NCBI GenBank assembly: GCA_963726195.1
Contig: CAVSBO010000005.1
Coordinates: 32,001 to 96,000, forward strand
Direction: 5' to 3'
Source: Candidatus Thorarchaeota archaeon
GTDB lineage: Archaea > Asgardarchaeota > Thorarchaeia > Thorarchaeales > Thorarchaeaceae
Length of the DNA: 64,000 bases
Part shown: piece after piece, positions 55,138-61,122 of the stretch
Numbering within the stretch: the stretch's first letter is position 1
Layout of the letters: every line of letters begins with the position of its first letter
Notes under the pieces: generated by a model
The model's input: the letters and a program-made list of their open reading frames with translations, nothing else
Told to the model about the DNA's origin: nothing
Databases searched by the model: none
Position numbers and translations under genes: made by a program

Positions 55138-56031
55138 GGAGGGAACGGGGCGATTTACTCGAACATCAACGGCTCTGGAGGGAGCAGCCCGATAGCAAGA
55201 GTGGACAACTGCTCACGCGTCATCAAGTACGTGGTGATCTACGGGGCGAGGTACGCTTCGTACAACTTGGTCGAGATGAGGATACTAGACATGAACGTGG
55301 TCGCGGACTTGACGAGGCATAATCCGACTGCAGCCGATCCAACGGTGTACGAAGGGACCAAACTTGGCGTCGGCCACACCGCAAGTCCGCCTGTTGATCA
55401 GTGGGCTTCGCAGGTCTCCAGCTGGTGGACCGGCTGGTGGCCTGAACTGCACACTAGGGTGCAACTGTCGGACTCTAGAGGTCCGGCATTCGTGTTTCAG
55501 GCGAAAACAGACCTGCTGGGTTCAAAGACACTCGAAGCGCTGGCTGTGACTGATGACAGAGGCAACACCATTCAGGCATTGCAAAACTCGAACATGGCCA
55601 ACACAGGTGCGCAGCTAATCATCGACAACCTCGTAGTGCTGTTGGGTTTGTACGTAGTTGAGGGATTGTGGGCAGCAGTCTGCTTTGCGTCCAACATAAA
55701 CCCAGCTTGGATTCCTGTTGCGGTTGCTGAGGGGGTAGTCTGGTTGGTATTGTATACGTACTCAATTACGATACTGGCAGCATCTCTGAAGAATGGCGGC
55801 TATGACCCTTGGTTCAGATTCTGGGTCCTATTGTTTACCGGTTTGATATTCTGCTTCGGAGCATTCTGTCTCATCTTCGGTCCCCCCATACTTGGTGGCA
55901 TCTTGGCACATAAGGACGTCACAGACAACCTATTGGCAGTTTTGCCTGGCGCTTGGATTCTGTTTGTGTTCAAATGCATGGCATGTATTGCTCTCTTCGC
56001 TGCTGCGATCGCAACGTTGTTCGGCGCATAA
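55138..56031 (+). CDS. Cassette A: 5'-truncated protein with conserved core and hydrophobic multi-helix C-terminus
   Basis: Frame open from 55138 after a TAG; paralogous to 59579-60616; 4-5 hydrophobic helices at the C-terminus. Confidence 0.65.
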   Translation, partial: GGNGAIYSNINGSGGSSPIARVDNCSRVIKYVVIYGARYASYNLVEMRILDMNVVADLTRHNPTAADPTVYEGTKLGVGHTASPPVDQWASQVSSWWTGWWPELHTRVQLSDSRGPAFVFQAKTDLLGSKTLEALAVTDDRGNTIQALQNSNMANTGAQLIIDNLVVLLGLYVVEGLWAAVCFASNINPAWIPVAVAEGVVWLVLYTYSITILAASLKNGGYDPWFRFWVLLFTGLIFCFGAFCLIFGPPILGGILAHKDVTDNLLAVLPGAWILFVFKCMACIALFAAAIATLFGA

Positions 56032-56048
56032 AGCAAAAGAGGAGCTTG

Positions 56049-56477
56049 ATGCACGGAAGGTGGAAGGAAATGCAGAATATGATGAGTCCTCTGGTGCTTT
56101 CGTTTCTGATACTGATTGCTTCTTGGTCTGTCTCAGCTATCGTGAGCTACTTTTCTGTCTATGAGGTAATTGCCAGGAGAAAGAAGCCGTGGAATGAAAT
56201 GACGCCTCTTGACCAATCACGGATTCTTTGGTTTTCCGGCCTAGGCGGCAGTGCAGGGGTTGTGTCGTTCATTCTCCTATTCGCTCTCGCCGCATCGGAA
56301 CGTGCTTTTCCGCAGATAGACCTCGTAATCCTGTTCGTCTGGGTCTTGGTGGAGATACCACTGACTGCTTGGGGCGGAGTCTTGGCGACGCACCGAAAGG
56401 TTTCTCAGAACCCGCTGAAAGAGCACGAACTAACCTTGAAGCCTCAAGACCGTCCGACCGTGAACGAACAGCTGTAG
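56049..56477 (+). CDS. Small 3-TM membrane protein (candidate immunity protein)
   Basis: GAGGAG SD, ATG 17 nt after the cassette A stop; three hydrophobic segments. Confidence 0.65.
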   Translation: MHGRWKEMQNMMSPLVLSFLILIASWSVSAIVSYFSVYEVIARRKKPWNEMTPLDQSRILWFSGLGGSAGVVSFILLFALAASERAFPQIDLVILFVWVLVEIPLTAWGGVLATHRKVSQNPLKEHELTLKPQDRPTVNEQL

Positions 56478-56564
56478 CTGCATAGCTTCACCGTCTGGGT
56501 CAGCTAGTAGGTACAGTCGTGTCCAGACTTTGGGGTTGCGGCATGCCTTATCTTCACAGATTTC

Positions 56565-57300
56565 ATGAGGGAGACGGACAACAAGTGGTATACTACAAAG
56601 CCTTGTACCGAGGTGCACAGGTTCGCTGTCATGCTCAGAACCTTGCCTGGGCATCACGGAGGTGTGAGGTCTTATGGGCGAAATACTGAGTATCTTCTTT
56701 GCTCTGATTGCCTCATTTCTGGGATTAGCACGAGTACTGCTTTCCTTGTAGAGGACAGGATTTGGTTTGCAAGGCTCGCGAAGGCCACCTGAAGACATGT
56801 GACTCACAAACACTTGAACTCTCAGGCACAATGGGTCTATGCGAACCCGCATGGAGCGAGATTCCTACAGTCTGTGATGCTAACTGGCGCTATGCTACTC
56901 CCAATCATCGGTATGACCGCCGGAACGTGGACAGTCTTCGCCGCAACCATTCTCTGGTTGCCAGCCTGCGAAGTAATGGAGGGCAGTCTATTCTACACCA
57001 TATGGATTGTATACAAGGCAACTACGAAACGTTCTCCTATGCCACTTGCGGTTGCAGGTTCGACAAGTGAGAGTGCTTGTGAGTCATGAACTGGATACGA
57101 CACTAGGAGAAAGCCAGGAGTACGTGCAAACGGGTATAAGGAATCGTTCGAGTAAGTATGATTCGGAGGAGCGTTCGTGACGGTCATTGGCTTTCTGGTA
57201 CTCAGCCGGTCTCTATGGGTCGTCGTAGCACTAGTCGACTTCGCTCAGTCTCTTGAACGGGGTCCTGCGGTTGTAGCGAGAACTCAAGTCTTCGGAGGGA
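56565..57300 (+). pseudogene. Decayed coding fragment, possibly a third cassette
   Basis: ORFs 56565-56792 and 56799-57089 share a frame separated by TGA; hydrophobic tail; weak resemblance to the cassette core. Confidence 0.35.
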
Positions 57301-57309
57301 TGAGAATCG

Positions 57310-58931: not shown

Positions 58932-59258
58932 CTAGGGCATAGGGCGTAGACCAAGTTGGACCATCTTGTTCCGTGCCGCTGTACCAAACCCATCATTGCG
59001 CTCTGACATCTCTATGAGAAAGTCCACTAAATCCCCGGGAGGACAGCCCCATTTGGGATTCTGAATATAGTTTACGATGTATTCGATGCCTTCTTCGGGG
59101 TCAAGATTCTTGATTGAATCAAAATAGGCTTGATTAGAGCCTGTCATGATCACTGAACGGTAGGCTGACCTAAGAACATACAAGAGATACAAGGCAAGCG
59201 GAATCCCGATGCAAGAAAGAACAATCACAACAAGGCCGTAGTCAGCCACTTCTCCCAT
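58932..59258 (-). CDS. Single-TM protein with C-terminal EGIE...RND..G..AR.K domain
   Basis: AGAGG SD, TTTATA at 59308-59313; paralogous C-terminus. Confidence 0.7.
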   Translation of the reverse strand: MGEVADYGLVVIVLSCIGIPLALYLLYVLRSAYRSVIMTGSNQAYFDSIKNLDPEEGIEYIVNYIQNPKWGCPPGDLVDFLIEMSERNDGFGTAARNKMVQLGLRPMP

Positions 59259-59388
59259 CCTCTGTCCGGTTCTTGCGCAGCCTCATCGAGTTATCCGGCC
59301 GTCCCGATATAAATGTGTACACGATACGAACGCACATCTAGTCGAGACTGCTCTGAAGAGCTGGTAGGGGCCGGATGGCGTTCTAGAT

Positions 59389-59578
59389 GAGTTGGCTCAG
59401 GCGATAGGTATTCTTAGGTGCCTCGACGGCGGTATTCACTGGCTTGAAGAAGCTCCGATTAGAGAATGGAGACAGTTCTGATGGCGTTGAAAAGCGAGCA
59501 AGTGTCAAAACTCGCCAAGGTTTTCGGAGACCGACTCATCACTGCCAAGCATGAGATGATTATACATTCTCAAGATGT
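59389..59578 (+). repeat. Diverged direct repeat of the upstream region and first 38 codons of the FAD oxidoreductase gene (other copy 61161-61350)
   Basis: Ungapped hand alignment 164/190 identical; encodes METVLMALKSEQVSKLAKVFGDRLITAKHEMIIHSQDV. Confidence 0.95.
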
Positions 59579-60616
59579 GAGGGTGCTTGCTATCAGGAAC
59601 CTGCTGACATAACTACGTCGTTTGTCAAGACAGTCTCAGTATGGTATGACCGATGCTCCAACTCAATCAAGTCAGCTTTCGACGGCTCCATCACAACGCT
59701 CACGACGGCCTACAACGCATCCAGAATCATAAGCTATATCGTCATTAGCACGTCGAGGTACGCTGACAAACCGCTGCTCGATATGAAAGTGCATGAAATC
59801 GACGTTGCAGTCAATCTCAGGGCTACACTGCCGTCAATACCAGAACCTCCTAAGAGTGAAGAGCCTCTTCCAGCTACATGTGATGGCACCAAGGAATGCC
59901 ACGCTAGCTACACTCAACAATCGGTGGGTATCCCTAATCCATTTTCCATGGTAGGTGATGTGCAATGCTGGTGGGCAGGACCATGGCCTGTGTTTCATTC
60001 AAGGATTGACAAGACCACTCCCGAAGGATTCACATTCAAATACCAAGCGGCACGTGACCTGCTTTGCAATACTTGGATTGAAGAAGCCAGCTTGGTGTCG
60101 AATGATCCGAACAATCCAATTCAAGGTAGTGCCTACCTACAGGCCCTCGTCGACACTCTTGTTGCTGAATGAATCTTCGAACAGACAATCAGAGCAATAG
60201 AGCAGGGAATCGGCATCGCGATCAATATCATTTGCGCTGCCACTGAGCTCGTGCCGGCTCTGTGGGAGGTCGCTGCGGCAGCGATAGTGGCGTATACGGC
60301 CGCGTTCGTATCGAGTACGATGGTTAGTGTCAACGATATCTGCAAACTCGCGCGTGATGCATGGTCAAGGTTTTTCCTGATTGTCTTTGACGGATTTGCA
60401 TTCCTCGCGTCAATCGCGATTCTGGATATCATCGCGCCTGGAGTGGTATCATCGATTCGTGTTGCTCTTGCTGGAGAAGGAACACTATTGGGTCTCCTGC
60501 TGTATGAGGCCGCCGATATGTCACTCTTCTTCCTGTTGTACAAAGTCGTCCTTCTACTTTGGATCTTCTATGTTGCATATGTGGTGTTTCTTATGACACT
60601 ATCAGGCAAGTTATAG
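59579..60616 (+). pseudogene. Cassette B: 5'-truncated paralog of cassette A with in-frame TGA at 60170-60172
   Basis: Coding frame begins at the repeat junction; ORFs 59783-60172 and 60251-60616 are in one frame; hydrophobic C-terminus. Confidence 0.75.
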
Positions 60617-60744
60617 GCGCGAGAACAGGAGCGAGAAATGTCAATGTTGCGATTGGATTCGTCACCAATACTCAGAGACGTCATGATTAGTACCAGTACC
60701 TTTTCATGGTGCGCGATGGGCACTATGGGTTGGAGGAATCGAGC

Positions 60745-61122
60745 GTGCAAATAACGAACTCGGAATTACTGATGGTCGATCTCATTTGCTGGCTCTGCGT
60801 GGGAGTTACGGCGGTGCTGTCCGGAAAACTGACACTCAGAAAGTGGGCTCCGTCCGTCAACAGCGAGCCTTATGCTCTGGGGTTTGCAGTCTTGGTCACC
60901 GTAGGAGCTTCATTGGAAGTCGCCAATCTCGGCTGGTTGATGGCGACACTGTCGCTCCCGTACTCTGTTCTAACGGGGTTTCTGCCATTCGTCGTGTACT
61001 GGACAGTTGTAGTTGTGGTCATCCTCGCCGTCTTCTACAAGGTGTTCCTTCCGAGAATGAACGAAATGCGGTCTGCAATGAAGAATCTGCAATCAAGCAC
61101 TGAAAAGGCTTACAAATGGTGA
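60745..61122 (+). CDS. Small 3-TM membrane protein (candidate immunity protein)
   Basis: GGAGG SD before GTG 60745; three TM segments. Confidence 0.65.
   Translation: MQITNSELLMVDLICWLCVGVTAVLSGKLTLRKWAPSVNSEPYALGFAVLVTVGASLEVANLGWLMATLSLPYSVLTGFLPFVVYWTVVVVVILAVFYKVFLPRMNEMRSAMKNLQSSTEKAYKW

Follow-up and report, generated by a model that had tools for sequence, protein, structure and literature searches.

What kind of system leaves behind, in an archaeal genome, gene fragments that lack proper starts, share the end of a common core, run into divergent hydrophobic tails, and are each followed by a small membrane-protein gene? This question is raised by a locus in a 64,000-nucleotide (nt) stretch of a Candidatus Thorarchaeota archaeon assembly (GCA_963726195.1, contig CAVSBO010000005.1, positions 32,001 to 96,000), here called the window, the numbering of which is used throughout. 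The island at 55048-61122 of the window, with two such fragments (cassettes A and B), is the parent-less relic of a polymorphic surface-protein system that was found only in one Asgard family among the genomes searched. In relatives, parent genes stand at the head of arrays of start-less cassettes, tails and small downstream genes vary together, and a layout like that of polymorphic toxin systems is supported.

Tails and downstream membrane proteins vary together

The loci of relatives yielded 52 non-identical modules, 48 of which carry behind the tail a small open reading frame (ORF) with at least one predicted transmembrane (TM) segment (mostly 2-5); these ORFs, here called partners, start within about 450 nt of the tail, and most of them within 50 nt. 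Partners diverge faster than tails yet follow the tail type: tail identities of 76%, 56% and 54% correspond to partner identities of 71%, 36% and 27%, respectively, and where tails share 40% identity or more, 10 of 17 pairs also have similar partners (of the seven that do not, two or more are ORF-picking errors), compared to 15 of the 1111 other pairs. The link between tail and partner was reached in none of 2000 label shuffles, which serves as an illustration and not as a P value because related modules are not independent. An outcome with conserved C-termini and a constant partner was looked for and did not occur; the C-termini are not conserved, and the downstream partners vary.

The conserved core ends at ...MRIHDINVVADLTRHDP, and the junction motif is ADLTRHDP. 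In the array of G003, a genome of the same genus, the orphan cassettes are 85-100% identical to their parent in the core and 0-30% identical just past ADLTRHDP, and cassette A of the window compared with the same parent shows about 65-70% identity in the core and 65-87% in the tail; core similarity thus tracks the genome, and tail similarity tracks the tail type. An identical tail type can be that of the parent in one genome and that of an orphan in another. When 16 full-length proteins were compared pair by pair, identity averaged 35-66% as far as residue 840 or so and 11-21% after it. Only 212 proteins matched at E <= 0.001 among the 1.84 billion representatives of a sequence library, and the alignments of the full-length ones cover positions 5-831 and go no further.

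The length of the tails is 221-296 amino acids (aa), except for two of about 460 aa that have an extra core-like repeat, and nearly all tails contain 3-6 hydrophobic segments. An earlier note on this DNA had described different C-termini; rather than being different domains, the tails form one diverged family (429 of 1128 pairs at E <= 1e-5, median identity 25%). In their alignment two places are near-invariant, the DG of the linker's DGT and the W..GxWP of a small beta domain, and the helices vary.

Parent proteins and orphan arrays in relatives

Cassette A is 65% identical, over the last 295 aa, to the C-terminus of P0008, a 1061-aa parent protein of G003 (locus L014) with an ATG start and an N-terminal hydrophobic helix. 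Of 36 genomes from the same family, 17 contain copies related to A, frequently in large number and arranged in tandem, and some of these matches form the C-terminal end of open frames that span 1040-2120 aa and begin with a hydrophobic helix. A search for long exported proteins that combine the core with a variable hydrophobic tail, as the earlier note had proposed, brought them to light in relatives, with the co-varying small TM gene next and start-less orphans thereafter. In G003, a 3-TM partner comes next after P0008, and then four cassettes, three of them start-less and the last one decayed, each with its own kind of small TM gene behind it; arrays of 6 to 10 or more alternating cassette and partner units are present in two further genomes (G010 and G018). 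The orphan cassettes open inside the core or shortly before it and have no signal sequence. Upstream of the parents, unrelated housekeeping genes were found in the four genomes inspected.

Within one Asgard family, 27 of 76 genomes contain the core; elsewhere in the phylum, 224 genomes representing 29 other families were searched, and it was found in none of them. No relative was found in IMG/VR, in which a viral origin was tested.

Predicted structure of the parent protein

The AlphaFold2 model of P0008, computed with 63 aligned sequences, has a mean predicted local distance difference test score (pLDDT) of 81; its domains are listed in Table 1 together with the features of the window. Residues 40-203 of the model match the SAVED-CHAT protease 8tl0_A (VIA Z 11.5, root-mean-square deviation 4.1, 161 residues aligned). 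The motifs Y.SHGGP.G and HLF.AC.S, within which H104 and C139 are located, are at least 90% conserved and fit a His/Cys dyad of clan CD, which suggests that the N-terminal domain is a caspase/CHAT-like peptidase domain (a Protein Atlas lead to CHAT, at 0.90, was used as a lead only and then checked by fold). The two beta-sandwiches match jelly rolls (Z 18.4 to the carbohydrate-binding module CBM2 of a phage Dit protein; calreticulin and GH16 reach Z about 13, and tandem galectins a Foldseek E of 3e-7) and are predicted to be jelly rolls of the lectin/CBM/GH16 type. The linker is of acidic/proline character, and the small beta domain behind it carries a W-x-G-x-W-P-x-L-H motif. When the tail of cassette A was modelled alone by AlphaFold2 (pLDDT 86), the same shape of a beta domain and four helices was obtained. 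A sequence search of the PDB with the parent gave no match.

On contig 8 of the window's own assembly, a tail-less open frame of 443 aa (G000:C8:157430-158002, L019) matches the first of the parent's two jelly rolls at 26% identity, and it is a putative stand-alone relative of the ectodomain within this genome.

Cassettes A and B

The two 5'-truncated frames with a common core that the earlier note had described were confirmed at their positions (Table 1), and they are paralogs with 28% identity over 235 aa (E 5e-20). The note had let them part into different C-termini after two shared blocks; the divergence is real, but the alignment continues far into the hydrophobic region (residues 24-238 of A). 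The likeness is far beyond chance, and the tails are diverged homologs and not unrelated. That the cassettes have no proper starts or contain stops was also borne out. Cassette A has no proper start; it opens at 55138 behind a TAG, its earliest possible start is the GTG at 55201, and it lacks a signal sequence. It covers only positions 36-100 of the hidden Markov model of the core, the core end occupying 55138-55332 and the tail 55333-56028, and about 90 nt of decayed core homology lie directly 5' of the frame. The 232-aa tail is open throughout and consists of the linker, the small beta domain and four long hydrophobic helices, in this order.

Frame B begins immediately 3' of a 190-nt repeat. 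It is 39% identical over 287 aa to an orphan cassette of the relative G032, and since this homology spans the in-frame TGA, B is regarded as a pseudogene of a divergent subtype. Recoding of the TGA was considered, and decay is the simpler explanation because cassettes of relatives carry sporadic TAG, TAA or TGA stops; a fusion of B to the duplicated start of the flavin adenine dinucleotide (FAD)-oxidase gene is unsupported, as the reading frames differ. In Pfam no significant match was obtained for any ORF of the island.

Gain and loss of single modules

In G002, a genome of the same genus without a cassette, the homolog of the small gene s5, one copy of the 190-nt segment and the oxidase gene are contiguous. 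This arrangement indicates that B and its partner entered between s5 and the oxidase gene and that the 190-nt segment was duplicated (D1L and D1R in Table 1); the integration of a fragment with its own copy of the segment would explain the duplication. In metagenome contigs of close relatives, 59274 is joined to 61160, i.e., the B module is missing, and 55004 is joined to 56580, i.e., the A module is missing. Among the sequencing runs listed as containing this DNA there was no RNA run, and the DNA runs each contained a small share of it. The island contains no tRNA and no Rfam family, for which it was checked as a possible integration site.

Between the HdrD-like and FAD-oxidase genes of G002 (L055, G002:C1), the island is replaced by a 663-aa protein (2044-4032) with an N-terminal signal and a C-terminal TM helix, and the site seems to gather surface-protein genes.

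Small genes and neighbours in the window

Table 1. Features of the island and its flanks (window positions) and domains of the parent protein P0008 of G003 (residues)
Feature	Position	Strand	Basis or remark
HepT-like / MNT toxin-antitoxin pair	53932..54743 (53932-54390, 54363-54743)	+	left-edge neighbour
Decayed 5' remnant of cassette A core, TAG-terminated	55048..55137	+	tblastn with G003 parent, passing one TAG
Cassette A, 5'-truncated orphan	55138..56031	+	last 65 core residues, then intact tail
Cognate small 3-TM partner of tail A	56049..56477	+	start uncertain: 56049, 56070 or 56079
s1, partner-type gene without cassette	56742..57089	+	49% identity to gene behind G003's second orphan (L014 7678-7256)
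s2, small 2-TM ORF	57310..57627	+	no relative found among loci compared
s3, 2-TM ORF	57646..58248	+	no relative found among loci compared
s4, partner-type gene	58157..58843	+	TM part and C-terminal domain; likely start ATG 58262
s5, 1-TM protein	58932..59258	-	same C-terminal domain as s4
D1L, diverged copy (86%) of FAD-oxidase promoter and first 38 codons	59389..59578	+	190 nt, abuts cassette B
Cassette B, 5'-truncated orphan of divergent subtype	59555..60616 (frame 59579-60616)	+	in-frame TGA at 60170-60172
Partner of tail B, small gene, about 4 TM segments	60706..61122	+	position and hydrophobicity
D1R, resident repeat copy	61161..61350	+	start of intact FAD-oxidase gene (61238 onward)
P0008 helix	residues 8-39		AlphaFold2
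P0008 alpha/beta domain	residues 44-205		AlphaFold2
P0008 beta domain	residues 230-415		AlphaFold2
P0008 two beta-sandwiches	residues about 406-618, 616-828		AlphaFold2
P0008 disordered linker, exactly at junction	residues 834-850		AlphaFold2
P0008 four-stranded sheet	residues 857-902		AlphaFold2
P0008 four helices of 30-38 residues	residues 916-1059		AlphaFold2

According to the earlier note, each cassette is followed by a 3-TM gene with its own Shine-Dalgarno sequence. This holds for A, the partner of which has 3 hydrophobic segments, with GAGGAG in front of the ATG at 56049, and is 55% identical (E 2e-39) to the gene directly 3' of the G003 parent, which has the same tail type. It does not hold for B, the partner of which has more segments and no obvious Shine-Dalgarno sequence; only a marginal match (E 0.009) to the gene behind a B-like cassette in L016 was found. 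Between the cassettes there are not four orphan genes, as had been counted, but five ORFs with 1-2 hydrophobic segments each on the scale used here, one of them on the minus strand. Three of these, s1, s4 and s5, match partner-type genes in relatives and, judged by these matches, are partner-type genes without a cassette of their own, in line with the orphan partners that had been postulated. No tail remnant was detected 5' of s1. The C-terminal domain of s4 (about 70 aa, conserved, with an R-D-x-x-G-x-x-A-R motif) recurs in s5; s4 matches genes behind tails in L031, L033, L047, L048 and L016, and the s5 homolog in G002 adjoins the FAD-oxidase gene. Across the 76 genomes of the family, the s4/s5 partner family is confined almost wholly to contigs with arrays.

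The toxin-antitoxin module noticed earlier at the left edge could be identified by Pfam as a HepT-like gene (E 3e-16) and an MNT gene (NTP_transf_2, E 6e-11), which overlap at 54363-54390; the pair is only a neighbour and not part of the cassette system. A pair 53-60% identical to that of the window is located directly 5' of a cassette in another Thorarchaeota genome (L037 8977-9809), and the pair was found repeatedly beside arrays.

A dispersed repeat of about 105-120 nt (54809-54920, + strand) separates the MNT gene from the decayed 5' end of cassette A; it has 18 copies in the genome at 76-93% identity (16 at >=84%), one of them near 6127-6234 (- strand) of the window. Metagenome depth peaks at this repeat, with loose ends on both sides. 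It has no tRNA or Rfam match and a folding z of about -0.7 on both strands, and it could be an element resembling miniature inverted-repeat transposable elements or an unnamed small RNA.

Downstream of the island, an extra C after 62557 was present in 4/4 metagenome runs and would merge ORFs 61238-62620 and 62416-63192 into one FAD-oxidase/NuoB-like gene, so that the split of this gene looks like a one-base assembly error. In contigs of three runs one base is missing at 52016-52017, where a UbiA-type prenyltransferase gene is split (ORFs 51483-52175 and 52018-52593), which is probably another assembly indel.

Comparison with known systems

Polymorphic toxin systems with orphan arrays include CdiA-CT/CdiI, Rhs-CT/RhsI and MafB/MafI (Zhang et al. 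2012, PMC3482391). The system described here resembles them in the large exported parent with a conserved body and a sharp junction to a variable C-terminus, in the co-varying small gene directly downstream and the partner-only genes, in the start-less orphan cassettes that retain a piece of the conserved core, and in the predicted caspase-like peptidase domain, a kind that is listed among the releasing peptidases of such systems (PMC3482391). It differs from them in its archaeal host, in domains none of which has a name in Pfam, and in tails that belong to one diverged membrane-helix family and not to many unrelated enzymes. In contrast to the CDI (contact-dependent inhibition) and Rhs systems, the five parents examined and their neighbours show no FHA or YD repeats, no VENN or PxxxxDPxGL motif, no CdiB/TpsB and no type VI or type VII secretion system.

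Two bacterial membrane systems invite comparison. Pore-forming colicins and ionophoric CdiA-CT toxins have integral-membrane immunity proteins, and our modules are similar in combining a hydrophobic helical candidate effector with a small 3-4-TM protein, specificity of which would lie in helix contacts within the membrane; the colicin domain, however, is a ten-helix globule, whereas here four long helices stand behind a small beta domain. The likeness to a colicin-type pore domain suggested earlier could not be recovered, as neither colicins nor any known toxin were matched by Pfam, Foldseek or VIA; the colicin channel domain in particular had no Pfam match and was absent among the fold matches of the tail, lists that a remote likeness could escape. 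The IdsD/IdsE pair of Proteus mirabilis is a self-identity pair that depends on a type VI secretion system and is not known to have orphan cassette arrays. By description, it shares with our modules the co-varying variable regions in or near TM segments of a large delivered protein and its membrane partner.

VARTIG of Thermococcales, an archaeal locus resembling polymorphic toxin systems, in which a large surface protein with a hypervariable C-terminal part is followed by small, mostly membrane proteins (PMC8416519), is the nearest described archaeal analogue. Its variable part is an immunoglobulin (Ig) domain, whereas that of our system is a four-helix membrane module attached to a predicted caspase-like and lectin-like ectodomain; no Ig domain was detected in the parents by Pfam. 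Predicted archaeal polymorphic toxin systems await experimental tests (PMC8416519). In the literature searched we found no paper on the present system, although a 2019 survey of archaeal polymorphic toxins could still list the family.

Possible functions of the tail and its partner

Because the locus follows the genetic logic of polymorphic toxin systems, we favour, with no more than middling confidence, an effector/immunity pair that acts in the membrane, and from this we infer toxicity, protection, delivery, cleavage and kin discrimination. Start-less cassettes, each composed of the core end, a tail and a partner, could swap the tail of the parent via homologous recombination in the core. 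The tail would be a membrane-acting effector (an ionophore, a pore, or a poison of a membrane protein) that is delivered or exposed upon cell contact, once binding through the lectin-like domains and possibly cleavage by the caspase-like part have taken place, and the cognate partner would neutralise it through helix-helix binding in the membrane. In the genome of the window, module A (tail intact), module B (broken) and the three partner-type genes may represent protection and reservoir.

Several observations weigh against an effector role. No delivery route is evident for the tail, and no conserved secretion gene was found in the neighbourhoods of parents in four genomes. Given the N-terminal export signal and the four hydrophobic helices, insertion in the producer's own membrane is expected, and the tail could be a mere anchor. 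The tails are one hypervariable homologous family of near-constant length (about 245-270 aa), which would fit a conserved structural role equally well. Structure comparison of the A tail retrieved only weak FtsX/claudin rows in Foldseek (best E 0.14) and generic helical bundles in VIA (Z <= 7.5), and Pfam gave nothing for the cassette, partner and parent proteins (five full-length parents), with no known toxin or immunity domain. Finally, the full-length parent that the earlier note had expected elsewhere, with the island as a set of orphan modules, exists in relatives but was not found in the window's own assembly (88.9% complete), in which only A, B and the unrelated lectin-like frame on contig 8 were detected.

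Some of these observations are also compatible with a non-lethal pair for self or kin identity that is read inside the membrane and gates adhesion, protrusion contact or membrane exchange rather than killing, a possibility that we take seriously but consider rather unlikely. The variation sits in the TM helices of one conserved fold, the partner co-varies, no toxin-like fold was recognized, the lectin-like ectodomain suggests binding at the cell surface, and the distribution is patchy and lineage-specific. On the other hand, selection for protection is the simplest account of orphan reservoirs and of partner-only genes, and no signalling domain turned up; the C-terminal domain conserved in many partners has no assigned role. 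A specific form of such a pair, somewhat more doubtful still, would be a membrane-embedded identity code read on contact, in which the lectin-like ectodomain docks the neighbouring cell and the match of tail and partner decides on contact or exchange.

Less probable, in our opinion, is that the tail is the variable anchor of a structural surface protein and the small gene its assembly partner, the cassettes serving phase or antigenic variation or the evasion of viruses or predators. The topology, which favours insertion of the tail in the producer's membrane, the common length and motifs of the tails, and the resemblance of the start-less arrays to pilS-type silent loci would all fit. Here, however, the exposed ectodomain is conserved and the buried helices are variable, the reverse of what antigenic variation predicts, and the partner-only genes, including the partner-type gene in the cassette-free G002, would be left without a role.

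That A and B are mere remains of ordinary paralogs decayed to pseudogenes, and that the small ORFs are hydrophobic frames by chance, is hardly credible and largely refuted: B does contain a stop, A has no start, and s2, s3 and the partner of B have no clear relatives among the loci compared, but the open tail of A and its partner are 65% and 55% identical, respectively, to a full-length relative and that relative's partner, and dozens of modules from many genomes show the alternation again.

Implications for Thorarchaeota

To our knowledge, hardly any conflict or recognition system has been described in Asgard archaea. The arrays presented here reproduce, with undescribed domains and within a single Thorarchaeota-level family, the complete genetic logic known from polymorphic toxin loci of bacteria, and the window adds direct evidence of single modules coming and going between close relatives. 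With a variable membrane module on one side and a membrane partner on the other, the arrays provide a concrete pair for asking how Thorarchaeota fight or recognise each other. If tail and partner were indeed an identity code read on contact, allorecognition would exist in those archaea that are most closely related to eukaryotes.

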